Of a stretch of DNA of 25,077 nt, positions 1,065 to 23,333 are shown in pieces. The translations under genes and the position numbers were made by a program. The number at the start of each line of letters is the position of its first letter. Position 1 is the first letter of the stretch. The notes beneath the pieces are model-generated. The model had not been told where the DNA came from. It searched no databases and worked only from the letters and a program-made list of their open reading frames with translations. The stretch lies in UHGV virus genome UHGV-0139735; one strand, written 5' to 3'. The stretch comes from a virus.

Positions 1065-2096
1065 TCAAAAACTTGCTATTGATGTTGGTAGTGTTGCCAG
1101 CGGATTAAACCGTAATGCAGTTTCCAGGTGATCCGGTGCTAGATGTGCGTAACGCATAGTCATTTTTATGTCGTGATGTCCGAGGATTTTTTGCAAAGCA
1201 AGGATATTTCCACCCGACATCATAAAATGCGCCGCAAACGTATGGCGCAGAACGTGTGTCAGTTGACCGCGAGGGAGCACAATAGACGTTTTTTCCATCA
1301 CGGATAAAAATTGAAAATAGCAGTCTGTGAAGAAATTGAACCCATCGAGCGCCATGATCTCTTCGTAAAGCTCTTTACTGATAGGGATGCTTCTGTTTTT
1401 CTTCCCCTTCGTTCTGACAAAGGTAATTCGGTATTTGGTCACCTGTGAGCGGGTAAGATTTACGGCTTCACGCCAGCGTGCGCCTGTGCTTAAGCATATC
1501 TTAACTACCAGTGCCAGAATTGGGTCCTGACGTTTGCAATCAGCCAGCAATTCAACAATCTGCTCATGGGTAAGCCATGCCATCTCTTTTTCTGCGATGG
1601 TGAATTTTCGCATGTTCTCCAGTGGGTTCGGATACGACCATTCGCCCAGACGGGATAGTTCGCTAAAAACACTACTTAGATAGCTTTGCTCCAGGTTAAT
1701 GGTGACCGGGCTTGCTCCTTTCTTCCATTTCTCGCTGAAGTAGATCTCGCCTGTCAGGCGTTTATCTCGATAGTGGGCAAACATTTTAGAGGTGAGATCA
1801 GTTGCAAGGGGATTGCCCAGAGCGTCAACCATCAACAGCAGTTTGTCATAGACATGCTGCCCAGCTGTCAGAGATTTACCATGTAGTTTGAACCATAGCT
1901 CAATCACGTCTTTCAATGTCCGACGATCCACTGATTCGCCCAGCCAGGGCTTTGCTTCGGTTTCTTCCATCGTGTGACGCTCAAAAGCCAGAGCTTCGCC
2001 TTTGGTGGCGAATTGTTTACGCACACGACGTCCACTACGTCCGGCGGGGTAACATTCGCAAAGCCATTTTCCTGTGGTGAGTTTTCGTACTGCCAT
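1065..2096 (-). CDS. int: Tyrosine site-specific integrase (P2/186 Int family)
   Basis: 343-aa product starting MAVRKLTTGKWLCECYP, with the C-terminal catalytic box ...LRHTFAAHFMMSGGNILALQKILGHHDIKMTMRYAHL (R, HxxR and Y motifs). The ORF-track start at 2174 adds 26 unsupported residues. Position is next to the repressor as in P2/186. Confidence 0.9.
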   Translation of the reverse strand: MAVRKLTTGKWLCECYPAGRSGRRVRKQFATKGEALAFERHTMEETEAKPWLGESVDRRTLKDVIELWFKLHGKSLTAGQHVYDKLLLMVDALGNPLATDLTSKMFAHYRDKRLTGEIYFSEKWKKGASPVTINLEQSYLSSVFSELSRLGEWSYPNPLENMRKFTIAEKEMAWLTHEQIVELLADCKRQDPILALVVKICLSTGARWREAVNLTRSQVTKYRITFVRTKGKKNRSIPISKELYEEIMALDGFNFFTDCYFQFLSVMEKTSIVLPRGQLTHVLRHTFAAHFMMSGGNILALQKILGHHDIKMTMRYAHLAPDHLETALRFNPLATLPTSIASF

Positions 2097-2282
2097 AAAA
2101 AATGCCCTCCAGTAGAGAGCATTTTTACTGTATGTATAACCAGTGTCAATGTATGAAATCCTGCGACCATACATCTCACTGAAGCCATAATGAAGTTAGC
2201 TATTTTTTGCTATGTGAGTATGTGACTTTTGCGGTTAGCCTGCGGCTCATTGTTATATTAGGCGCAGATATAAAAGCAAAAT

Positions 2283-2489: not shown

Positions 2490-3065
2490 TTACCTAACGT
2501 ACTTAATTGTTAAACTTATAATTTTCCCAATTATTTCAACATCTTCTATCTTGCACTCGAAGGCTCTGTTTCCACCCTCGACGAAGATTCTTCCACCGGG
2601 TAAACGAGTAATGTCACGGATCGTTATTTCGCCATCAATACTTATTACCCATTTACCATCACGTATATCATCAAATTCCTTATCACAAATAAATTCAGAA
2701 TTATTATCTGTGATTACAAAAAGATTCTTGAATGCCGACGGTAGAAATTCTCTATCGAAAATATAAAAACCGTCTTCACACAAGGCCCCATCAGATAATA
2801 CATATTTAGCAACTTCCATAGTATTTGTATTACCTGAAGTTTGCTTTGAACCATGCCCGGTTGTGAGCCAATTAAGTGAGGTGCCTGTTTCAAGGGCGCA
2901 CTGGATTACCCATTCTGCTGGGAATGAGTCACGCATGTAGCGTGTGGCGAGTGTACTTTTAGAGATTCCTAAATGATCGCACAACGCCTGTCGAGTCTTG
3001 AATCCATAAGCTTCTACCATGCGCTCTATAGCGCCTCGTCCGCCTTTCTCCAAATTCATGGTCAC
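2490..3065 (-). CDS. cI: CI-type immunity repressor (186 CI-like: N-terminal HTH plus C-terminal oligomerisation domain)
   Basis: 191 aa with an N-terminal HTH (QALCDHLGISKSTLATRYMRD). Its size matches 186 CI (~192 aa) rather than P2 C (99 aa). It is divergent from the apl/cII operon and upstream of int. Confidence 0.8.
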   Translation of the reverse strand: MTMNLEKGGRGAIERMVEAYGFKTRQALCDHLGISKSTLATRYMRDSFPAEWVIQCALETGTSLNWLTTGHGSKQTSGNTNTMEVAKYVLSDGALCEDGFYIFDREFLPSAFKNLFVITDNNSEFICDKEFDDIRDGKWVISIDGEITIRDITRLPGGRIFVEGGNRAFECKIEDVEIIGKIISLTIKYVR

Positions 3066-4989: not shown

Positions 4990-5840
4990 GCACCATCCTG
5001 AAATGGGCAGGAAATAAAACCGCCATAATGTCCGAACTGAAAAAGCATCTTCCTGCTGGCCCGCGACTGGTTGAACCTTTCGCGGGTTCCTGTGCAGTGA
5101 TGATGGAGACGGATTACCCCAGCTATCTTGTTGCGGATATTAATCCTGATTTAATCAACCTCTATAAAAAGGTTGCTGCTGATTGTGAGGCGTTTATATC
5201 TCGTGCCAGAGCTTTATTTGAGGAAGCAAACAGGGAGGTGGCTTATTACAACATAAGGCAGGAGTTTAATTACTCCACTGAAATTACTGATTTCATGAAA
5301 GCGGTATATTTCCTGTATCTCAATCGTCACGGTTACCGTGGTTTATGTCGCTATAACAAGAGCGGGCATTTCAACATTCCCTACGGTAATTATAAAAATC
5401 CGTATTTCCCTGAAAAAGAAATTCGCGCATTTGCAGAGAAAGCCCAGCGGGCAACGTTTATCTGCGCCAGCTTTGATGAAACGCTGGCGATGTTGAAGGT
5501 GGGGGATGTGGTGTATTGCGATCCGCCTTATGACGGTACGTTTTCCGGCTATCACACTGATGGTTTCACTGAAGATGATCAGTATCACCTGGCATCCATT
5601 CTTGAACATCGGTCATCAGAAGGACATCCGGTCATTGTTTCTAACAGTAACACGTCTTTGACCCGGTCCCTTTATCGTAATTTCACTCACCACTACATCA
5701 GGGCGAAACGCAGCATCGGCGTTGCAGCGGGGGAGGGAAAATTTGCAACAGAGATGATTGCCACTAAATCTGCTAATTGGTTTAGTGCCGATTTTAGTAG
5801 GGGACGTGACTCTACTGTTATTTTCGGGGTGCAAGTGTGA
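4986..5840 (+). CDS. DNA N6-adenine methyltransferase (Dam family)
   Basis: From the ATG at 4986 (RBS GGAGG): N-terminal LKWAGNK motif and catalytic DPPY motif (VYCDPPYDG). The ORF-track start at 4926 is an upstream extension. Confidence 0.85.
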
Positions 5841-6667
5841 AAGAAATGCACCACGGAATTCATCATTTCCATGGGACGCCTGTCTGGGGAAGTGCTGGCG
5901 ACGTTCATCGTATTGCGGTGAGCGGAGCTGGCGCTTTCGTCTCCTATGTACGACCAGATCAGATTGCGGCGTCCATTCAGCACGCTCAGGTCGTCGGCAT
6001 TGATAACGGCGCATTTTCTGCATGGGTGCGTGGGCTAAAAATTAACTGGAGTGATTTTTATAAATGGCTCCTGAACTATTACCACCATCCTAAGGTCGCT
6101 TTTTTTGTCATTCCTGATGTTGTGGACGGAGGTGAACGTGACAATGATGCCCTGATAAACGAAGTTCCGAAAATGTTCTACGGGAAGGCAACTCCCGTCT
6201 GGCATCTGCACGAGTCAATCGATCGGCTTATCGAGCTATGTCGTGAATGGCCTCGTGTCTGCTTTGGATCGTCTGGTGAATATGCGGCTATCAGAACTGC
6301 GCACTGGCATCGTCGTATGCAGGACGCTTTTGAAGCAATTTATTGCCGACACAATTTCAAAACAGCTGTTCATGGTTTGCGCATGCTTGACGGTCGTGTG
6401 TTGGGAAATTACCCACTGGCGACTGCCGACAGTACAAATCTTGCCTGCAATGTCCCCAAATTTAATAGCAAATATCCTGAGCTGACGCGGGCTATTCAGG
6501 AGGCTGAGTATTCGCGCAATCTGACGGAAAAGGAGCTGAAAGCTGTCATTCTGAAAAACCGTTGCGCAATTTTAAAAGGTGCAATTGAAGCTGTTCGCCC
6601 ACCTTCAGTTTCTGATTGGCTGTCGAATGGTTTGCAGCCTTCACAGCTCGAACTGGAGATTGCGTAA
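5837..6667 (+). CDS. Hypothetical protein (~276 aa) translationally coupled to the methyltransferase; possible DNA-modification enzyme (weak, unverified TGT/DpdA-like motifs)
   Basis: GTG at 5837 overlaps the Dam stop; an alternative ATG lies at 5846. Contains [12 protein letters not shown], which resembles the DSGGF active-site strand of tRNA-guanine transglycosylases; this is eye-level similarity only. Confidence 0.5.
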
Positions 6668-9009
6668 TGAACTACAGCTATTCCTGGAATGCTGAGAAAA
6701 AAGCAATCAATCCTTACGTAGAGACGGAAGAGCAATCTTCAGTTTCTGCGCTTTCAAACCTGATCGCTCTGTACGCTGCCGATAACGAGCAGGAACAGCT
6801 GCGCCGCGAGGCACTGAGTGATCAGGTCTGGGAGCGTTATTTCTTTAATGAATCCCGTGATCCTGTCCAGCGCGAAATGGAGCAGGATAAGCTCATTAGT
6901 CGGGCAAAGCTGGCGCATGAGCAGCAGCGTTTTAATCCAGATATGGTCATTCTGGCGGACGTTAATGCCCAGCCTTCCCATATCAGCAAGCCACTGATGC
7001 AACGTATTGAATACTTCAGCAGCCTGGGCAGGCCAAAGGCTTATTCCCGCTATTTGCGTGAGACGATTAAGCCATGTCTGGAACGGCTGGAGCATGTACG
7101 CGACTGTCAGCTATCCACTTCTTTTCGCTTTATGGCAAGCCATGAAGGGCTGGACGGCCTGCTGATCCTGCCTGAAATGAGTCAGGATCAGGTGAAACGC
7201 CTGTCCACCCTGGTAGCTGCGCATATGAGCATGTGCCTTGATGCAGCTTGTGGCGATTTGTATGTCACCGATGACGTTAAGCCAGAAGAAATCCGCAAGA
7301 CATGGGAAAAGGTGGCAGCGGAAACCCTGCGTCTGGATGTCATCCCGCCTGCGTTTGAGCAACTCCGCCGGAAAAGAAACCGCCGTAAACCCGTGCCCTA
7401 TGAACTCATTCCGGGTTCGCTGGCGCGTATGTTGTGCGCTGACTGGTGGTACCGGAAATTATGGAAGATGCGTTGCGAATGGCGGGAAGAGCAGTTGCGT
7501 GCTGTCTGCCTGGTCAGCAAAAAAGCATCTCCCTATGTCAGCTATGAAGCCGTGATGCATAAACGTGAGCAGCGCCGTAAGTCGCTGGAGTTTTTTCGTT
7601 CTCATGAACTGGTGAACGAAGACGGCGACACGCTGGACATGGAGGATGTGGTAAACGCCAGCAGCAGCAACCCTGCGCATCGCCGCAATGAGATGATGGC
7701 CTGTGTTAAAGGCCTGGAGCTTATCGCGGAAATGCGCGGTGACTGCGCCGTTTTCTACACCATCACCTGTCCGTCACGTTTCCATTCCACGCTAAATAAT
7801 GGCAGGCCCAACCCAACTTGGACAAATGCGACGGTAAGACAAAGCAGTGATTATCTGGTCGGCATGTTTGCTGCATTTCGTAAGGCGATGCACAAAGCCG
7901 GATTGCGGTGGTATGGCGTGCGGGTGGCTGAGCCGCATCATGACGGTACAGTTCACTGGCACCTGTTGTGTTTTATGCGCAAAAAAGACCGCCGCGCCAT
8001 CACTGCATTACTGCGTAAGTTTGCCATCCGTGAAGACCGCGAGGAACTGGGCAATAACACTGGGCCGCGCTTTAAGTCTGAGTTGATTAACCCGCGCAAA
8101 GGTACGCCAACAAGCTACATCGCGAAATACATCAGTAAGAACATTGACGGGCGTGGTCTGGCTGGCGAGATCAGCAAGGAAACGGGGAAATCCCTGCGTG
8201 ATAATGCTGAATACGTTAATGCCTGGGCGTCTCTGCATCGTGTTCAGCAATTCCGCTTCTTTGGCATTCCGGGGCGTCAGGCTTACCGTGAACTGCGATT
8301 GCTGGCTGGTCAGGCGGCAAGGCAACAGGGGGACAAAAAAGCAGGTGCGCCGGTACTGGATAACCCGCGCCTTGATGCCATCCTGGCTGCTGCTGATGCT
8401 GGTTGTTTTGCCACCTACATCATGAAGCAGGGCGGCGTACTGGTTCCCCGCAAATATCACCTCATCAGAACCGCTTATGAAATCAACGAAGAGCCGACCG
8501 CCTATGGCGATCACGGCATTCGTATTTATGGCATCTGGTCACCTATTGCAGAGGGCAAGATCTGCACTCATGCCGTGAAGTGGAAAATGGTTCGTAAGGC
8601 CGTTGATGTTCAGGAGGCGGCAGCCGACCAGGGCGCTTGCGCCCCTTGGACTCGTGGCAATAACTGTCCCCCTGTTGAAAATTTGAACCAATCAGGGGGC
8701 GATTTACCAGAAGCCAGTGGGCCGGAGTCGCTGCCGGATCTTCATAATCTGAGCGCGAAGGAACGACGGGAGCTGACGGCGCGGCTGAGATTGGTAAAAC
8801 CTAAGCGGCGGAAAGGGTACAAACAGCAGATTAGCAATCATCAGCGCCAGCAGCTTGATGCTGAACTGAGGTCTAGGGGGTTCGATGCGAGTGATACCGA
8901 GGTGGATCTGCTTTTGCGTGGTGGCAGTATCCCGTCCGGGGCCGGGCTGCGTTTGTTCTATCGAAACCAGCGCCTGCAGGAAGATGATAAATGGCGGCAG
9001 TGGTACTAA
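6667..9009 (+). CDS. A: Rolling-circle replication initiator, P2 gpA family (HUH endonuclease)
   Basis: HUH motif ([10 protein letters not shown]) and two-tyrosine motif ([10 protein letters not shown]) as in P2 A protein. ATG at 6667 overlaps the upstream stop (TAATG); the ORF-track start at 6616 is possible but less likely. Confidence 0.85.
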
Positions 9010-9080: not shown

Positions 9081-9539
9081 CTATTTAGTTTTTTCAATCA
9101 TAGTGCTTTCGGCTTTTGAATATACACTATTAATAGTGGTGATTTTTGTAGTTAATGCTATACAAACTAGACTCAGAAGTAAGACACCAATTGATATTGT
9201 ATTGTTGCTGAGTATTATATGTAGACAAATAGAATAAATTGCAACGATGACTATTGCTACGAAAACAAAGATTGCCATTAAATTATGTGCTTTGATGTAG
9301 TCCTCAGGGGTTAATATGTAGCTTATGTTTATGATTATAAATAAAATTAAAAATGCTCCCCCAATCCATTTGGGTAGGGCTGTTTCTTTTTTTGATACTG
9401 CAGGTGTGGTTCTTGGGATCGATTCTACGAAGGATTTAAGATTTCCCATGTCAGTATTGTTTAATGCTGCACTTTCTGCTTCGAATTTTGAAACAGTGCC
9501 ATCAGGAAGGGTTGTAGTCCAGCTTATTTTTCCTGTCAT
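9081..9539 (-). CDS. Small integral membrane protein (152 aa: ~55-aa soluble N-terminus plus three predicted TM helices); cargo gene
   Basis: Hydrophobic segments WIGGAFLILFIIINISYIL, LMAIFVFVAIVIVAIYSICLHIIL and ISIGVLLLSLVCIALTT. Its start overlaps the upstream stop (ATGA). Strongly AT-rich versus the backbone. Confidence 0.65.
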   Translation of the reverse strand: MTGKISWTTTLPDGTVSKFEAESAALNNTDMGNLKSFVESIPRTTPAVSKKETALPKWIGGAFLILFIIINISYILTPEDYIKAHNLMAIFVFVAIVIVAIYSICLHIILSNNTISIGVLLLSLVCIALTTKITTINSVYSKAESTMIEKTK

Positions 9540-9910
9540 ACAACATCCCTTATTCTGAATATTCTATTAAAATCAATATCAACAGCAGAGTTCGACCACT
9601 CACTCTTTTGATTATCTTTAATTAGAATTGCTTTGTTCTCGTCAAAGATTATATTTGTACCACTAAACTCAATATGAGATAGGTCTCCTCTAAATATTTT
9701 TTGCTCAACGCTTTTGAATGCATCTTTTAATGATGCACACTCTTTTCTGAATAATGGTTTGGGGCTGTAAGTCCCTAAGTTTATAACTATTACGCCACTA
9801 CCATCTTTAGCAGGGTGAATGGAGAAAGATAGCGCTAATCCGTGATAGTGGGATTGTATTTTCTTCATTAATTTACGAACGTAATCATCATACCGCTTTC
9901 TATATATCAT
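9536..9910 (-). CDS. Hypothetical soluble protein (124 aa); first gene of the two-gene cargo operon
   Basis: Intact AT-rich ORF translationally coupled to the membrane-protein gene. No family recognised by eye. Confidence 0.6.
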   Translation of the reverse strand: MIYRKRYDDYVRKLMKKIQSHYHGLALSFSIHPAKDGSGVIVINLGTYSPKPLFRKECASLKDAFKSVEQKIFRGDLSHIEFSGTNIIFDENKAILIKDNQKSEWSNSAVDIDFNRIFRIRDVV

Positions 9911-10074: not shown

Positions 10075-10116
10075 TTTACATTCATGGAACTACGCATATA
10101 CTGTATATGTGTACAG
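10075..10116 (+). promoter_or_regulatory. SOS-regulated promoter: -35 TTTACA, 16-bp spacer, -10 TATACT, with an overlapping LexA box
   Basis: taCTGTATATGTGTACAGtg at 10101-10116 fits the LexA consensus CTGT-N8-ACAG and overlaps the -10 element and start site. It lies 33 bp upstream of the ATG at 10149. Confidence 0.7.
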
Positions 10117-10148: not shown

Positions 10149-10337
10149 ATGCAAGACTATTTTTTGGAGTCGTTGAAGCTCCAGCGCATTGATTTTTTTG
10201 TCAAGCTTGTGGCGGCTAGTGAGTGTGATGATGAAGAGAAGCGACTGGCTATCCAGTGGGTTTCTGAGTTAACGGATGAGCTGATGGCAAAGATTCGTGC
10301 TCATGAATACAACCGCTCAATGGATCTTCCCAGTTAA
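10149..10337 (+). CDS. SOS-inducible small acidic protein (62 aa); candidate antirepressor-type (Tum-like role) gene
   Basis: Strong RBS (TAGGAGGG) 4 nt upstream of the ATG at 10149, directly downstream of the LexA-box promoter. The longer ORF-track version from 10026 would span the promoter itself. Confidence 0.6.
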   Translation: MQDYFLESLKLQRIDFFVKLVAASECDDEEKRLAIQWVSELTDELMAKIRAHEYNRSMDLPS

Positions 10338-10415
10338 CAGCAGGAACGTTGCTGGCGTGAGAACTAGCTTCTTACGTCAGCAAGGTTAAACAACGAGTAC
10401 AACGAGGCGTTAGCC

Positions 10416-10682
10416 ATGGGTAAATCCAACAGCAAATTCCAGACCGTTTATGAGGGGCAGGCGCTTGAACGTGACGAACTTGGCGGATGGGTTTTGTTTC
10501 AGCGTCGTGTAGAGTATGGCGGCAAGTACTGGATGGGAATAACCATGGATGATGTGTTTTTGTTTGGCTCCGATCATCCTGTATCAGGTAGTGAGGCGAT
10601 GGTCTTCATCATTGATTATGAGGGCGAGCAGCTCAGACGGTCTTTACCCGTTGGATACACCCCACAAATGCCGCTTTTCTGA
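10416..10682 (+). CDS. Hypothetical protein (88 aa), probably co-transcribed with the SOS-inducible ORF
   Basis: Backbone-like GC content; no terminator between the two ORFs; a terminator follows at 10750-10774. Confidence 0.5.
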   Translation: MGKSNSKFQTVYEGQALERDELGGWVLFQRRVEYGGKYWMGITMDDVFLFGSDHPVSGSEAMVFIIDYEGEQLRRSLPVGYTPQMPLF

Positions 10683-10749
10683 CAACCGGCTGGGTGCATG
10701 TCTATGCTGCATGAGATCGCATGATCGTTTGAGGATCGTTTTCGCTGAG

Positions 10750-10774
10750 GCCCGCCAGAACTGGCGGGCTTTTG
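10750..10774 (+). terminator. Rho-independent terminator (GCCCGCCAG-aa-CTGGCGGGC followed by TTTT)
   Basis: Perfect 9-bp GC-rich inverted repeat followed by a T-tract, 68 bp after the 88-aa ORF stop. Confidence 0.7.
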
Positions 10775-10818
10775 CTTATGTCATGCAGGTGCATGAAAAT
10801 CGCTCCATAAAGCGGGCA

Positions 10819-10837
10819 GGCGTGGCGGGGATACGAG
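10819..10837. other. Candidate cos (cohesive-end) site
   Basis: GGCGTGGCGGGGATACGAG followed by CGCGCGCTG. Its first 13 nt match the 19-nt cohesive end of 186 as I recall it (GGCGTGGCGGGGAAAGCAT; P2 is GGCGAGGCGGGGAAAGCAC). The recalled sequences were not checked against a reference. Confidence 0.4.
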
Positions 10838-10968
10838 CGCGCGCTGGGAGGTATAAGAATGAAGTACAATTAACTTCACTTTGTTGAGTAAAATGCTATA
10901 AGAATAATGCAAATTATTGAGTCCCATTAGTTCAAAACTTAGGGATATCTTATGTGAAAGGAGGTTAT

Positions 10969-12654
10969 ATGTTAGATAAATTGATTTTTAATTCAGGAAG
11001 TAATCCAACATCTAAATCTTCATTATCGGTTGACTTGACTCCATTGACAATTTTTGTGGGGCCGAATAATAGTGGTAAATCTAGAGCTTTAATCGATATA
11101 GAAAATCAACTGACAACCCGAAATGCAGCGCAGGGAGAAGTAATAAAACAGATATTAATCAAACCACTTTCTGAGGATGAAGCAAAAAAGGAAATTGAAT
11201 CTTTACAAGTTGAGCCAAACCAGGATGAAAAGCATGCGGGGCATGTTGTTTTATCTAGGCTAAACCTCCGTGGTGAAGGAATATCTAGGATTCTAGTGTA
11301 TTTGGATGGAATGTTAAGAGAATTCCAGCAACCCAATGAATTAAATCGGGAGCATCTATATCAATATTACTCGTTGCTGACTCTAAGGTTGGATGGTAGA
11401 AGTCGACTTTCCTTAACTTCAAGTCAAGGTTCATCCGATTTACAAGGAGAACCTACGAATAACCTTTCATTTCTTTTTAAAAATAATAAAGCAAGGATGG
11501 AGCTAAGAGATATCGTTTTTGATGCTTTCGGGAAGTATCTTGTTATTGATCCAACAAATATAGGTTATCTTAGAATTCGTCTTTCTGAGCGCGCTCCTGA
11601 GACTGAACAAGAAGAAAGAGGTTGGGATGAAAAGTCAGTGCTTTTTCATTCAAAAGCGTCATTGATTACAGAGGCTAGCGATGGTGTTAATGCTTTTGTT
11701 GGGATGATGATTTCGCTGATAGTTGGCTCACCAAAGGTGACTCTAATTGATGAGCCGGAAGCTTTTTTACATCCATCCTTATGCTCAAAGTTAGGAAAGG
11801 AAATATCTAGGATTAGTGCTCATAGTAATAAAAATGTGTTTATTTCAACGCATAGCGCTAATTTTTTAATGGGTTGTGTTCAAGGTAAAGTGCCATTGAA
11901 TATAGTTAGGCTTACTTTTGATGGTAAATCTGGTACGTCTAGATTACTAACAAAGGAACAATTGACGCCGCTCATGAGAAATCCGTTATTAAGATCTATT
12001 GGTGTGCTAAACGCATTGTTTTATAATTACGTTGTCGTTACTGAAGCGGATGCAGATAGGGCATTTTATCAAGAGATTAATGAGCGCTTATTGGCTGCTG
12101 GAGATCCTCGGGGTATTGAGGGATGCCTGTTTTTGAATGCTCAAAACAAACAAACTGTTTGGGATATAGTAAAACCCCTTCGTGAGCTAGGTATTCCCTG
12201 CGTTGGAGTGGTAGATATCGATATATTGAAGGAGGGAGGAGTTGTATGGAAAAAACCAATGCTTGGAGCTTTTTTTCCAGAAATGAAGCATGAAACTTTA
12301 GGTTTGGAAAGACAAAAGCTTTTTCAAGCCTTCAAAAATACGAATAAAAATATGAAGACAGATGGGGGCCTCTCCTTGTTATCGGGTTCAGATAAAACCG
12401 CCTGCTCTGAGTTTTTTAAATCCCTTTCAGATTATGGGGTTTTTGTCGTTCCAACGGGCGAGATCGAGTCTTGGTTGCAAAATCTTGAAATAGGTCGAGG
12501 AAAGAATACTTGGTTAACAAGTATTTTCGAGAAGATGGGGGATGATCCTAATGATGAATCATATGTGAAGCCATCTGAAGGTGATGTTTGGGATTTTATT
12601 GGGAATATAAAGCACTGGTTGGTTAACCCTGAAAGGAAGGGTATTCCCGAGTGA
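10969..12654 (+). CDS. OLD-family ABC-type ATPase with C-terminal TOPRIM nuclease domain (P2 Old-like anti-phage defence protein)
   Basis: 561 aa from the ATG at 10969 (RBS AAAGGAGG). Walker A GPNNSGKS, Walker B/D-loop VTLIDEPEAFLHPS, H-loop ISTHSAN, and C-terminal Toprim-like acidic motifs VVVTEADAD and VGVVDID. AT-rich relative to the backbone. Confidence 0.7.
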   Translation: MLDKLIFNSGSNPTSKSSLSVDLTPLTIFVGPNNSGKSRALIDIENQLTTRNAAQGEVIKQILIKPLSEDEAKKEIESLQVEPNQDEKHAGHVVLSRLNLRGEGISRILVYLDGMLREFQQPNELNREHLYQYYSLLTLRLDGRSRLSLTSSQGSSDLQGEPTNNLSFLFKNNKARMELRDIVFDAFGKYLVIDPTNIGYLRIRLSERAPETEQEERGWDEKSVLFHSKASLITEASDGVNAFVGMMISLIVGSPKVTLIDEPEAFLHPSLCSKLGKEISRISAHSNKNVFISTHSANFLMGCVQGKVPLNIVRLTFDGKSGTSRLLTKEQLTPLMRNPLLRSIGVLNALFYNYVVVTEADADRAFYQEINERLLAAGDPRGIEGCLFLNAQNKQTVWDIVKPLRELGIPCVGVVDIDILKEGGVVWKKPMLGAFFPEMKHETLGLERQKLFQAFKNTNKNMKTDGGLSLLSGSDKTACSEFFKSLSDYGVFVVPTGEIESWLQNLEIGRGKNTWLTSIFEKMGDDPNDESYVKPSEGDVWDFIGNIKHWLVNPERKGIPE

Positions 12655-12661
12655 GTTTATT

Positions 12662-12684
12662 GAGCCGCTTTAGCGGCTCTTTTC
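12662..12684 (+). terminator. Terminator hairpin (gagccgc-ttta-gcggctc followed by TTTTC) between the convergent OLD-like and Q genes
   Basis: 7-bp perfect stem and T-run directly after the OLD-like stop codon; only 36 bp separate the two convergent stop codons. Confidence 0.65.
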
Positions 12685-12690
12685 ATATTC

Positions 12691-13722
12691 CTATGCAAGG
12701 TTATATTCATTAAATTGCATTATTGGCTCCTTTATCCATTCATTTACTTCTTGAAGCCTTTTTTGCAATGGAATTAGCTCATTACGGACAAAGACCCTGC
12801 TGGCTTTCTCCACATCCCCAAATCCCCCGACATTATTTGGCATTATCCCCATCATTTGTGGCGGCACACGATGCGCAGCCATCATGTCATCCCGGCTCAC
12901 GTTCTTGATATTCAGAAACTCATCCTTCGCCGCGACTTCTGACAACGGGATGATCTGAAGCCCGTCCTTTTTGCCGTTAGGCGAGTACATAAACAGGTTG
13001 CGGAAGTTGCCAGGGCCTTTGGCGCTTTTCATCGCATTGCGGAGGTTGTTCACATCCTCCTGGTTCTGCGCGGCATCGGTCATGTACATGATGAAGCCTG
13101 CATGACTGCCGTTAATGTAATACTTCCGGCGGAACAGCGTGGCGGACTCGTTGAGCAGGGCCGACGGAATGGCAGAAAGATAACCTGGCAGGCCGTAGAT
13201 CTCCTGGTTGATGTCAGGTTCCATCAGATGAAAAATGCTGCCTTTCGTGAACTGATACGGCTGGGTTGTCATACCGTATTGCACAAACCAGTAGGTATCC
13301 AGGTCTAACCCGCGTCGGGTGTATTTTGCCAGCGCAGGCTCAAGGGCTATAACTTCACCGAATCGGTTCGTGCGTTTCTCCAGGTAGGCGTTACCAAATA
13401 CCAGATAGTCCTGCACAAAACGCGAAAAAGCCTGTTGGCTGAGCAGCGGATGAGGGATATAGGTACTGGTCAGAATGTTGCACTTTACTGCAATCGGGGA
13501 ACTGTGATGCACGGCAGCCCGGAAGGTGCGCGCCAGTCCGTCAAAACTTACGGGTGGCTCATACCAGCGATCCGTCTGTACGCATTCCACATAGTCCAGC
13601 AGTTCGCGGCGGTCCAGTACAGGAATGGGATCACCAAAGCTGAAAGCTTCGGCTGAAGTTTGATTTTTATGCTGGCTCCGTTTCGTCGCAGCAGCGCGGT
13701 TTTTCTTACTCTTTCCCATCAA
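12691..13722 (-). CDS. Q: Portal protein (P2 gpQ)
   Basis: 343 aa (P2 Q is ~344 aa), located downstream of and overlapping the terminase ATPase gene, in P2 order. Confidence 0.85.
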   Translation of the reverse strand: MMGKSKKNRAAATKRSQHKNQTSAEAFSFGDPIPVLDRRELLDYVECVQTDRWYEPPVSFDGLARTFRAAVHHSSPIAVKCNILTSTYIPHPLLSQQAFSRFVQDYLVFGNAYLEKRTNRFGEVIALEPALAKYTRRGLDLDTYWFVQYGMTTQPYQFTKGSIFHLMEPDINQEIYGLPGYLSAIPSALLNESATLFRRKYYINGSHAGFIMYMTDAAQNQEDVNNLRNAMKSAKGPGNFRNLFMYSPNGKKDGLQIIPLSEVAAKDEFLNIKNVSRDDMMAAHRVPPQMMGIMPNNVGGFGDVEKASRVFVRNELIPLQKRLQEVNEWIKEPIMQFNEYNLA

Positions 13723-15485
13723 AAAATCTCCACAATATTGCTGGTATTGGCGGACTCGCCCTGCAGCGGTTCGTTAAACAGTGCGTGCATTGTTGCCCAG
13801 GCCAGATCGGCGTGGCTGGCTTCTTCGCTGCGGCTAGCTTCATAGGTCGGGCGGTTGCCGCTGGCGGTGGTGGCGCGACGGATTGCCATGAATGACTGCG
13901 CAATGTCGGTGTGCCCGGCGTCAAACTCCAGACGGCGGTGGCTGATAATGTCGTAGGCCTTGAGTACCAGGGCGTTTTTAACGTTGGGGTTGTAGACAAA
14001 CTCCCGGACGGCAGGAAAGAACGCTTTCACGTTCTCATAAACCCCGTGACCGACGCCTGTCGAGTCGATGCCGATATAGGTCACGTTGTACTGCTCGGTC
14101 AGTTTTTTGATTGCATCAGCCTGGGCGCGGAAGTCCATCCCGCGCCACTGGTGACGCTCAAGAATGCGAAACTTACCGCCTGGCACGGCTGGCGGTGCCA
14201 CCACCACGCATCCGGCGCTGTCGCCATTCTGCGTACCTTTTGCCGGGTCATAACCGATCCACACCTCGCGCCAGCCAAACGGGCGCAGGGCCAGTGCATG
14301 AAAGTCGGTCCAGACTTCCCAACTGTCCACCATGCACGCCTGCAGCTCGCTGAGCGGAAACACGGATGCGAGATCGTCCACAAACTCGCACATCAGCAGG
14401 TTCTGGTATTCGTCCGGGCTGTACTCCATGCGTAGCTGGTCGAGGTCGAACAGGTTACAGCCGCCGCGCACCGCATCTTCCACGGTGACTATCTGGCGGT
14501 ATTGCCCGTCTGCGCACAGCAGGCCGGGGGCCAGATTGCTGTGGGACAGGTCGATGTCCACCTTATCGGCTTTGTTGCGCCCACGGTTGAACAGCGCACC
14601 GGACCAGAACGGATAAGCACTGTGTGTCAGACTGGATGGCGTGGAAAAATAGGTTTGTCGCCATTTTTTGTGAATAGCCATACCGGAAGCCACTTTGCGC
14701 AGCTCCTGGAATTTCGGTATCCAGAAATATTCATCCAGATACAGGTTGCCGTGGTAACTCTGGGCCGTGCGGGCATTGGTGCCGAGGAAGTAAAGCGTGG
14801 CCCCGTTGGGAAGCACCATCGGATCGCCTTTCAGCTCCACTTCCACTTCTTTGGCGAAGTCGATGATGTACTGCTTAAAGACGTGGGCCTGTGCTTTGCT
14901 GGCGGAAAGGAAAATCTGGTTACGTCCGGTCAGCAGGGCGTCAATCAGGGCTTCACGGGCAAAGTAAAAGGTCGCGCCGATCTGGCGTGACTTCAGCAGG
15001 TTGCGGATGCGGTTGGTTTTTCCGGCTTCCCACCAGTGGCGCTGGTAGTTGAACATGGAGGAATGGAAGATTTCTTCCAGCTTCTCAATCTGTTCATCGG
15101 TGAAAACATTCTTTTCCGGCTGACGGCGCGGGCCTTTGTTGCGGTTGGCGACGTTTGGGTTTAAGTCGGCTTCGTTGCCGCCATTGTTAAACTTGCCGAT
15201 CCGCGCGTGGCGTTCCGACTGGCGCGCCAGCAGGTCAATCTCTTTGAAATCTTTCCCTTCTTTGTGCTCCTTCATAATGAGCTGGCAGTAGCGTGCGGCG
15301 GTGGTGAGCTGCATCTGATCCAGCGGCCCATAGTCACCCCACTTGTCGCGTTTTTTCCAGCTGTGAACGGTTGCAACTTTCTCGCCCAGCATTTCAGCAA
15401 TGCGGGCTACGCGGTATCCCTGAAAGTACAGCAGCATGGCCTGCCGACGGGGATCGAGATCTGCGGGTGTCAGTGTGGTGTTCAT
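13719..15485 (-). CDS. P: Terminase large (ATPase) subunit (P2 gpP)
   Basis: 588 aa (P2 P is ~590 aa), divergent from the scaffold gene O as in P2. Confidence 0.85.
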   Translation of the reverse strand: MNTTLTPADLDPRRQAMLLYFQGYRVARIAEMLGEKVATVHSWKKRDKWGDYGPLDQMQLTTAARYCQLIMKEHKEGKDFKEIDLLARQSERHARIGKFNNGGNEADLNPNVANRNKGPRRQPEKNVFTDEQIEKLEEIFHSSMFNYQRHWWEAGKTNRIRNLLKSRQIGATFYFAREALIDALLTGRNQIFLSASKAQAHVFKQYIIDFAKEVEVELKGDPMVLPNGATLYFLGTNARTAQSYHGNLYLDEYFWIPKFQELRKVASGMAIHKKWRQTYFSTPSSLTHSAYPFWSGALFNRGRNKADKVDIDLSHSNLAPGLLCADGQYRQIVTVEDAVRGGCNLFDLDQLRMEYSPDEYQNLLMCEFVDDLASVFPLSELQACMVDSWEVWTDFHALALRPFGWREVWIGYDPAKGTQNGDSAGCVVVAPPAVPGGKFRILERHQWRGMDFRAQADAIKKLTEQYNVTYIGIDSTGVGHGVYENVKAFFPAVREFVYNPNVKNALVLKAYDIISHRRLEFDAGHTDIAQSFMAIRRATTASGNRPTYEASRSEEASHADLAWATMHALFNEPLQGESANTSNIVEIF

Positions 15486-17539: not shown

Positions 17540-18190
17540 ATGAGCCTGAGTCCCGCACGGCAGCATCGCCTGCGCGTTCAGGCTGAACAGGCCGCCCGTG
17601 AGGGCGGCAGCGTTCGCCACGCGTCGGGCTATGACCTGATGCTGCTGCAACTGGCGGAAGACCGCCGCCGTCTCAAGGGCGTTCAGTCCACGGTCAAAAA
17701 AGCGGAAATCAAGGTGGAACTGCTGCCGAAATACGCCGCCTGGGCAGAGGGTGTCCTGGCTGGCGGAGGCGCGCAACAGGATGACGTGCTGATGTACGTG
17801 ATGCTGTGGCGCATTGATGCCGGAGATTATGCCGGGGCGCTGGAGATCGGGCGTCACGCCCTGCGTCATGGCTGGGTGATGCCGTTGGGTAACCGCAACG
17901 TGCAGACCGTGCTGGCAGAGGAAATGGCAGACGCGGCGCAGAGCGCAATGCTTGCCGCCACCGGCTTTGATGCTGATCTGTTGCTGCAGACGCTGGAGCT
18001 GACAGACGGTCTGGATATGCCGGACCAGTCACGGGCACGTTTGCATAAAGCGATTGGCGCTGTCCTGAGTGAAAGCAATCCGGCTTCCGCCCTTAATCAT
18101 CTCAACCATGCGTTACAGCTCGATCCCCGCTGTGGCGTGAAAAAAGACAAACAGCAGCTGGAGCGCAGACTGCGCAATGACAGCCGCTGA
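17540..18190 (+). CDS. M: Terminase small (endonuclease) subunit (P2 gpM)
   Basis: 216-aa Arg-rich protein following N, in P2 order. Confidence 0.75.
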   Translation: MSLSPARQHRLRVQAEQAAREGGSVRHASGYDLMLLQLAEDRRRLKGVQSTVKKAEIKVELLPKYAAWAEGVLAGGGAQQDDVLMYVMLWRIDAGDYAGALEIGRHALRHGWVMPLGNRNVQTVLAEEMADAAQSAMLAATGFDADLLLQTLELTDGLDMPDQSRARLHKAIGAVLSESNPASALNHLNHALQLDPRCGVKKDKQQLERRLRNDSR

Positions 18191-22438: not shown

Positions 22439-23333
22439 CCTTTCGCAGTTGCCTGCACCGCAGATTGTGGATGTGCCGGACTTTGAGACGCTGCTTGCCG
22501 AACGCAAGGCAGAATTTGTGGCGCTTCATCCGAAAGATGAGCAGGAAGCAGTGATCCGCACGCTGGAACTGGAGTCTGAACCCGTCACCAAATTGTTGCA
22601 GGAGAATGCTTACCGTGAGTTGCTTCTGCGCCAGCGCATTAACGAAGCCGCGCAGGCGGTGATGGTGGCTTACGCGATGGGCGGCGATCTTGACCAGCTC
22701 GCTGCCAACTACAACGTGAAACGCCTGACGGTGACGCCTGCTGATAATGACGCTGTGCCGCCCGTTGCAGCAGTGATGGAAAGCGATGAAGCGTTACGCC
22801 TGCGTGTGCCTGCAGCCTTTGAGGGGCTTTCAGTTGCGGGGCCAACTGCAGCTTATGAATTTCATGCCCGAAGCGCCGACGGTCGGGTGGCGGATGCCAG
22901 TGCAACCAGCCCGGCACCTGCAGAGGTGGTGCTGACTGTCCTTAGCCGCGAAGGCGATGGAACTGCAGAAAAAGACCTGCTGGACGTGGTGGAAAAAGCT
23001 CTGAACAGTGAGAACGTCCGCCCGGTGGCTGACCGTCTGACGGTTCGCAGCGCAGAAATCATCCCGTATCGCGTGGAAGCCACCATTTTTCTCTATCCGG
23101 GACCGGAAGCAGAGCCGGTAATGGCAGCGGCAAAAGCCAGCCTGCAGAGGTACATTGCCAGTCAGACGCGGCTTGGCCGGGATATTCGCCGTAGCGCCAT
23201 TTTTGCCGCGCTGCATGTTGAGGGTGTTCAGCGTGTGGAACTGGCTTCCCCGCTGGCGGATGTGGTCCTGAACAAAACGCAGGCGGCATCATGTACGCAG
23301 TGGAGCGTGACCAACGGGGGAACGGATGAATAG
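22425..23333 (+). CDS. J: Baseplate assembly protein J
   Basis: 302 aa from the ATG at 22425 (RBS AGGAG), the same length as P2 J. Confidence 0.8.
   Translation: MAVIDLSQLPAPQIVDVPDFETLLAERKAEFVALHPKDEQEAVIRTLELESEPVTKLLQENAYRELLLRQRINEAAQAVMVAYAMGGDLDQLAANYNVKRLTVTPADNDAVPPVAAVMESDEALRLRVPAAFEGLSVAGPTAAYEFHARSADGRVADASATSPAPAEVVLTVLSREGDGTAEKDLLDVVEKALNSENVRPVADRLTVRSAEIIPYRVEATIFLYPGPEAEPVMAAAKASLQRYIASQTRLGRDIRRSAIFAALHVEGVQRVELASPLADVVLNKTQAASCTQWSVTNGGTDE

Follow-up and report, generated by a model that had tools for sequence, protein, structure and literature searches.

The terminase of bacteriophage P2, formed by gpP and gpM, acts on replicated circular monomers and introduces two nicks 19 nt apart, leaving 19-nt 5′ ends. 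The cos sites of P2 and P4 were reportedly the subject of studies by Padmanabhan and co-workers in 1974 and by Ziermann and Calendar in 1990. The GenBank records of P2 (NC_001895) and P4 (NC_001609) both start with GGCGAGGCGGGGAAAGCAC, and that of 186 (NC_001317) starts with GGCGTGGCGGGGAAAGCAT. A cohesive-end annotation covers these starting bases in the P2 and 186 records, and the 186 record has the top strand cut at the 5′ end and the bottom one at the 3′ end.

Several further members of the family have a published cos. For E. coli HS phage 1, the site was reported as 5′-GGCGTGGCGGGGATACGAG-3′ at positions 926016-926034 (PMC8008629, Supplementary Table 4; Zund et al. 2021, Microbiome 9:77), and the mapping, which followed induction with mitomycin C, relied on read start sites and PhageTerm (PMC8008629). 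The cos of Salmonella phage SEN8 was published as ggcgtggcggggatacgag (PMC5427200), and that of Stenotrophomonas phage Smp131, deduced by analogy only, as GGCGTGGCGGGGAGACGAG (PMC3931495). According to work cited in the text of the latter paper, a conserved cos region of 55 bp is needed for packaging in the P2 family (PMC3931495). Also, the region between gpA and gpQ, beside cos, has been described as a hotspot for defence genes (Rousset et al. 2022, PMC9122126; 2026 follow-up, PMC13586616).

Here we have examined a stretch of DNA of 25,077 nt (the window) that corresponds to a P2-family prophage of E. coli, focusing on the 19 nt at positions 10819-10837 of the plus strand, GGCGTGGCGGGGATACGAG, which an initial annotation had put forward as a candidate cos with a divergent 3′ half. 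Sequence comparison leads us to conclude, with high confidence, that 10819-10837 is very probably the cohesive-end segment of the cos of a Fels-2/E. coli HS-type P2-family prophage integrated beside rcdA in E. coli. The site is already known, being the published Fels-2/E. coli HS allele of the P2-family cos.

The 19-mer in the register of known cohesive ends

The window 19-mer shares 15 of its 19 bases with the 186 end and 14 with the end common to P2 and P4. The reference ends cited in the initial annotation agree with the GenBank records. Its statement that the first 13 nt are shared with 186 and P2 is exact for 186 (13/13) but not for P2 and P4 (12/13), which have A instead of T at position 5. 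A difference over the last 6 nt does exist, although it affects four of these bases and not all six.

To place the site in its context, we rebuilt the circular junctions of P2, 186 and P4 from their right and left ends and aligned these junctions with the window using MAFFT, adding four phage records found by BLAST (Fels-2, RE-2010, SopEPhi and Yersinia phage MLG42). Results showed that the window is in register with P2, 186 and P4 over the right arm, the 19-mer and the YGCGCGC that follows it, with no indels around the nick. The GC-rich 19-mer, with its conserved 5′ half GGCGWGGCGGGG, thereby falls on the cohesive ends annotated in P2 and 186. The interpretation as a cos is thus supported, since the segment aligns with the cos of P2, 186 and P4 and is identical to the end-mapped cos of HS phage 1.

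Within the window, the exact 13-mer GGCGWGGCGGGGA occurs once, with a chance expectation of ~7.5e-4 (2 x 25077 / 4^13). When two mismatches were allowed, a shuffle test gave 2 matches versus 1.2 expected, and at this setting the search is not discriminating. We also looked for a second cos-like site closer to the portal gene and found none in the window; the sole other match to the 13-mer, at 23170, carries 2 mismatches, is at chance level and lies inside a tail gene. The window therefore holds a single site of the cos kind.

The closest comparison is provided by the HS prophage. We found the 19-mer in the E. coli HS sequence at exactly 926016-926034, in the same position between gpA and gpQ and also followed by CGCGCGC. 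The two prophages are ~96-97% identical at the nucleotide level over their shared blocks, their terminases are 100% (gpP) and 99.1% (gpM) identical, and the chromosomal flank on the rcdA side of the HS prophage aligns with that of the window. Since the ends of HS phage 1 have been mapped, the 19-mer is the same and gpP is identical, the end-mapping experiment has already been carried out, in effect, for a sibling of the prophage. The two differ in the right arm, which is 91% identical over 149 nt with 13 differences, including C/T at position -19 from the nick, and in the cargo on either side of cos. HS carries a DinI-like gene and a hypothetical protein of 463 aa, whereas the window carries an ORF of 88 aa without a Pfam match and an OLD-family nuclease.

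The published SEN8 cos is exactly the window 19-mer. In the Felsduovirus members SEN8, Fels-2, RE-2010 and SopEPhi and in Yersinia phage MLG42, as in HS, both the 19-mer and the CGCGCGC after it are identical to the window sequence; in the five phages the right arm is 89-94% identical, hosts and cargo differ and, as far as we found, cos was assigned by annotation. The Smp131 sequence, from a phage of a distant host, agrees with the window at 18 of 19 bases and likewise ends in ACGAG.

Phage 186 resembles the window in its 19-nt 5′ cohesive end, its TGCAT repeats, its inverted repeat, the AAAGTGGGCA preceding the nick and the SOS control of prophage induction. It differs at four bases of the 3′ half and in that its cos directly adjoins the portal gene, without intervening cargo. 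Viral contigs with a 186-type cos, used as a proxy for the 186 proteins, show ~63% (gpP) and 51% (gpM) identity to the proteins of the window. P2 and P4 share the architecture and register of the cos but end in AAAGCAC. P4 has the CGCGCGC and loses similarity right after it, and P4 relates to P2 as the Fels-2-type relatives relate to the window, with similarity lost past cos. Unlike the window, P2 carries old and tin as cargo on the side of cos that faces gpA, and it lacks the hairpin of the right arm.

Conserved flanks and their limits

The sequence immediately upstream of the 19-mer (10694-10818, plus strand) can be aligned to the final ~130 nt of P2, 186 and P4 and would be the right arm of cos, that is, the right end of the mature chromosome. 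This arm of ~125 nt also aligns with Fels-2, RE-2010, SopEPhi and MLG42 and is kept across 49 members of the same clade. Features common to the aligned sequences are three TGCAT-type repeats ~100-125 nt upstream of the nick, an inverted repeat ~50-70 nt upstream and CATGCA..TGCATGAAAA ~25-37 nt upstream. In the window, TGCAT-type repeats are found at 10695-10699, 10708-10712, 10719-10723 (as GCATG), 10782-10786 (opposite strand) and 10790-10794, and AAAGCGGGCA lies immediately 5′ of the nick. On the other side, the CGCGCGC at 10838-10844 (plus strand) is the conserved start of the left arm, with CGCGCGC in P4 and TGCGCGC in P2 and 186 at the same place. The flank pattern of the P2 family is hence present in the window: TGCAT-type repeats and AAAGYGGGCR before the nick, YGCGCGC after the 19-mer and a single rare base, at -19. 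This base is T at 10800 (plus strand), where 46 of the 49 clade members have C and one has T; C is also found in P2, 186 and P4. Over the 40 nt preceding the nick, the window differs from the clade consensus at two further positions, -17 and -14, both of which vary within the clade.

Conservation stops sharply on both sides. In BLAST comparisons with phage records, similarity starts at 10694/10696 and stops at 10844-10856, and the partial matches in E. coli break at 10845. The similarity of Fels-2, RE-2010, SopEPhi and MLG42 to the window and to one another ends right after the 19-mer plus CGCGCGC; similarity among relatives stops 26 nt past the nick, and in 127 sequences no conservation was seen beyond +26. 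Of 5426 complete E. coli genomes, 1397 (about a quarter) carry a homologue of a 56-nt core of the region, and 18 E. coli records match the core of the window at ≥99%.

Inside the conserved right arm, at 10750-10769 (plus strand), a GC-rich inverted repeat with perfect 9-nt arms, GCCCGCCAG/CTGGCGGGC, is followed by TTTT. The predicted RNA fold reaches -23.8 kcal/mol (z = -4.9), although a simple terminator scan did not list this hairpin. It is probably the terminator of a LexA-controlled operon, and the 19-mer begins 49 nt downstream of it. The GC content is 56% at 10690-10856, 28% at 10857-10953 and 38% in the cargo gene beyond. The context described in the initial annotation is therefore accurate: the site sits in a segment of backbone GC, just past a terminator hairpin that closes an operon with a LexA box.

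The perfect LexA box, CTGTATATGTGTACAG, is located at 10101-10116 (plus strand) and overlaps the -10 of a promoter-like site at 10075-10102. Two small ORFs lie behind it on the plus strand, at 10149-10337 and 10416-10682. The second is the ORF of 88 aa without a Pfam match; Fels-2, RE-2010 and the HS prophage have their DinI-like gene at this place.

With regard to other members of the family, a comparable hairpin is found in 186 and P4, and all the ATACGAG-type sequences have a strong one. We considered it as a universal element of cos and rejected this, as it is absent from P2 and from many ATAGCAT-type loci. More broadly, a GC-rich inverted repeat ~50-70 nt before the nick was observed in most P2-family cos regions other than that of P2, satellites included. 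The T-run is usually missing from it, and its sequence differs between lineages (for instance L002/L005, which are 186, L006, which is P4, and many IMG/VR loci). This inverted repeat may be more than a transcription terminator.

cos alleles and terminase clades

To survey the variation of the cohesive ends, we scanned IMG/VR with the pattern GGCGWGGCGGGG-N8-GCGCGC and obtained at least 120 loci; the conservation of GGCGWGGCGGGG and GCGCGC in this sample of viral contigs is partly forced by the search pattern. Among the 120 matches listed there were 28 different 19-mers. ATACGAG was the commonest ending among them (26/120), followed by the P2 type with 21/120. This changes how the 3′ half of the window 19-mer, first annotated as divergent, should be described: it is not unusual but the regular allele of the Fels-2 lineage with the commonest ending among the matches listed. 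The window combines the ATACGAG end, the CGCGCGC and a terminase of the Fels-2/E. coli HS clade, and so carries the Fels-2-type allele in all these respects.

The 3′-half classes (AAAGCAC, AAAGCAT, ATAGCAT, xTACGAG, GAGCAAG and others) track terminase clades. In xTACGAG loci, gpP and gpM are 83-100% and 81-100% identical to those of the window, whereas P2-, 186- and ATAGCAT-type loci show ~62-70% (gpP) and 48-51% (gpM) identity. This co-variation may reflect the specificity of the terminase, or only linkage and common descent; a reading as more than linkage and shared ancestry was set aside, because the present data do not separate the two. A speculative and rather unlikely extension would be that the 3′ half of the cohesive end is a specificity determinant and that the classes are packaging compatibility groups which set the P2-like helpers open to each satellite. 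If that were true, the rare T at -19 could be a step in such divergence.

One of the IMG/VR loci, L071 (2871731064_000006), belongs to a P4-like satellite, with a P4 alpha-type primase/helicase, an integrase-like ORF at the end of the locus and unrelated cargo next to its cos. The cos lies at 8926 in the orientation used, within the same conserved block and as a CTACGAG variant. When gpA, gpP, gpQ and gpM of the window were compared with this locus, none had a match. Since the satellite shares the block 10694-10844, in the CTACGAG form, without sharing any of these four genes, it provides independent support for the block as a signal. The same cos allele was observed in two other loci, L024 and L130. 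Satellites may thus exist not only for the P2 class of cos but also for the xTACGAG type.

Gene map of the prophage and its cargo

The window contains an integrase gene (1065-2174, minus strand), a CI-type repressor gene (2490-3065, minus strand) and a gene for the gpA replication endonuclease (6616-9009). The portal protein, a gpQ homologue, is encoded at 12691-13719 (minus strand; Pfam Phage_portal and the RefSeq annotation of the identical prophage of strain EC11) and the large (ATPase) subunit of the terminase, a gpP homologue, at 13719-15485 (minus strand; Pfam Terminase_5, Terminase_6N and Terminase_6C). Downstream of the large terminase gene come the genes for the scaffold, the capsid and the small terminase, and then lysis and tail genes. 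The small/endonuclease subunit, a gpM homologue, is encoded at 17540-18190 (plus strand; Pfam Phage_term_smal, E = 3e-40). The portal, both terminase subunits, scaffold and capsid genes are all present according to Pfam. Because the window ends within the tail genes, the completeness of the prophage rests on the identical copy in EC11, in which no pseudogenes are annotated among the essential genes. Also, 15 complete E. coli chromosomes, whose sources are human, poultry, cat, dog and sheep, show 100% identity to the window over 10400-12700, and so does EC11 (NZ_CP073360).

The cos lies between gpA and the portal gene; the latter, gpQ, is transcribed away from it, and the order gpA-cos-gpQ is also found in Fels-2, RE-2010, SopEPhi and HS. 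In the window, the interval from cos to the portal gene is filled by a gene for an OLD-family ATP-dependent nuclease (10969-12654, plus strand, start according to RefSeq), which is outside the cos proper and forms a low-GC (38%) cargo. The assignment comes from Pfam (AAA_15, AAA_21 and OLD-like TOPRIM), from PADLOC (Old, E = 1.3e-20) and from RefSeq, which labels it ATP-dependent nuclease. The old gene of P2 lies on the other side of cos, that of gpA. Among the loci with the cos type of the window, the distance between the 19-mer and the portal gene ranges from 182 to 3402 nt, and in most P2-type loci it is ~206 nt. The interval from cos to portal is a cargo slot in the Fels-2/HS-type lineage.

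Two additional regions of the map deserve mention. At 9081-9910 (minus strand), two overlapping ORFs of 152 and 124 aa form an island of 33% GC between gpA and the LexA-controlled operon. Searches of these two ORFs against Pfam and PADLOC gave no matches; they probably make up a second cassette of cargo, on the side of cos where gpA lies. The stretch 5761-6742 does not align to the E. coli HS prophage and holds an ORF of 276 aa (5837-6667) between a Dam methylase gene and gpA, for which RefSeq gives no more than a hypothetical protein in the identical prophage of EC11.

As for gene calls over the site itself, a mechanically derived ORF, 10549-10887, was considered as a real gene and rejected, given that RefSeq annotates nothing there and that conservation follows the nick and not the reading frame. 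Hypothetical proteins annotated directly over cos were observed in the records of MLG42 (PP599993, 29937-30080; 3018-3161 of our locus L007) and PV052273 (9655-9815), and are likely artefacts of gene calling.

Discussion

That the 19-mer is a cohesive end in register with those of P2, 186 and P4, and that both the 19-mer and the terminase correspond to those of an end-mapped prophage, is plain at the level of the aligned sequences. For the window itself we infer the activity of the prophage, the exact positions of the nicks and the parts of the flanks bound by the terminase. It could be argued that the site is a cos homologue that no longer works, either because the prophage is cryptic or because the rare base of the right arm weakens recognition by the terminase, leaving the 19-mer as a relic. 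The T at -19, where the family nearly always has C, and the 13 differences that separate the right arm from that of HS within 149 nt would fit this explanation. However, the packaging and head genes are all intact, gpP is that of the inducible HS prophage, and the departures at -17 and -14 sit at positions that vary within the clade. Moreover, 15 complete E. coli genomes of varied sources share the same allele, with 100% identity along 2.3 kb, and the EC11 copy shows no annotated pseudogenes among its essential genes. Taken together, these data make a relic very improbable.

Even smaller is the probability that packaging truly starts elsewhere, for instance beside the portal gene, with the 19-mer as a duplicated or displaced copy. 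The distance between cos and portal, ~190 nt in P2 and 186 versus 1.85 kb in the window, might raise this suspicion, but the window contains no second match and just 36 nt separate the cargo gene from the portal gene. Furthermore, cargo also comes between the 19-mer and the portal gene in HS, Fels-2, RE-2010 and SopEPhi, the position in HS being that of the mapped cos, and distances among clade members span 182 to 3402 nt. We regard as equally negligible the chance that the segment is coding or regulatory, either as part of the ORF 10549-10887 or as the control region of the cargo gene, instead of a packaging signal. This ORF does span the site, and hypothetical proteins are annotated across the homologous region in some GenBank phage records; yet RefSeq has no gene there, and conservation sets in and stops at constant distances from the nick, irrespective of the genes nearby. 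The block is also common to a P4-like satellite with unrelated neighbouring genes, and it stays the same in relatives whose cargo gene and AT-rich leader differ.

With 10819-10837 taken as the cohesive-end segment of a Fels-2/E. coli HS-type cos, a course of events may be proposed. Upon induction, the terminase (gpP, 13719-15485; gpM, 17540-18190) would recognise the conserved block 10694-10844 and would nick the top strand at the predicted position 10818/10819 and the bottom strand at 10837/10838, generating 19-nt 5′ single-stranded ends. A unit-length chromosome would be packaged, with complementary 19-nt 5′ extensions at its ends, and after injection these ends would anneal and the DNA would circularise. 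The mature chromosome would start at 10819, run through the cargo and portal genes and end at 10818, after the LexA-controlled operon.

The assignment of this cos has little import beyond correct annotation. Annotation pipelines leave the cos core unmarked or call spurious ORFs over it. With the cos placed here, the ends of the mature chromosome would be fixed, with the left end at 10819 and the OLD-family nuclease gene as the first gene on virion DNA. The cos would then split the variable region between gpA and gpQ into two cargo slots, one at the right end and the other at the left end of the chromosome, a layout that fits the published idea that hotspots adjacent to cos exchange defence genes (PMC9122126).
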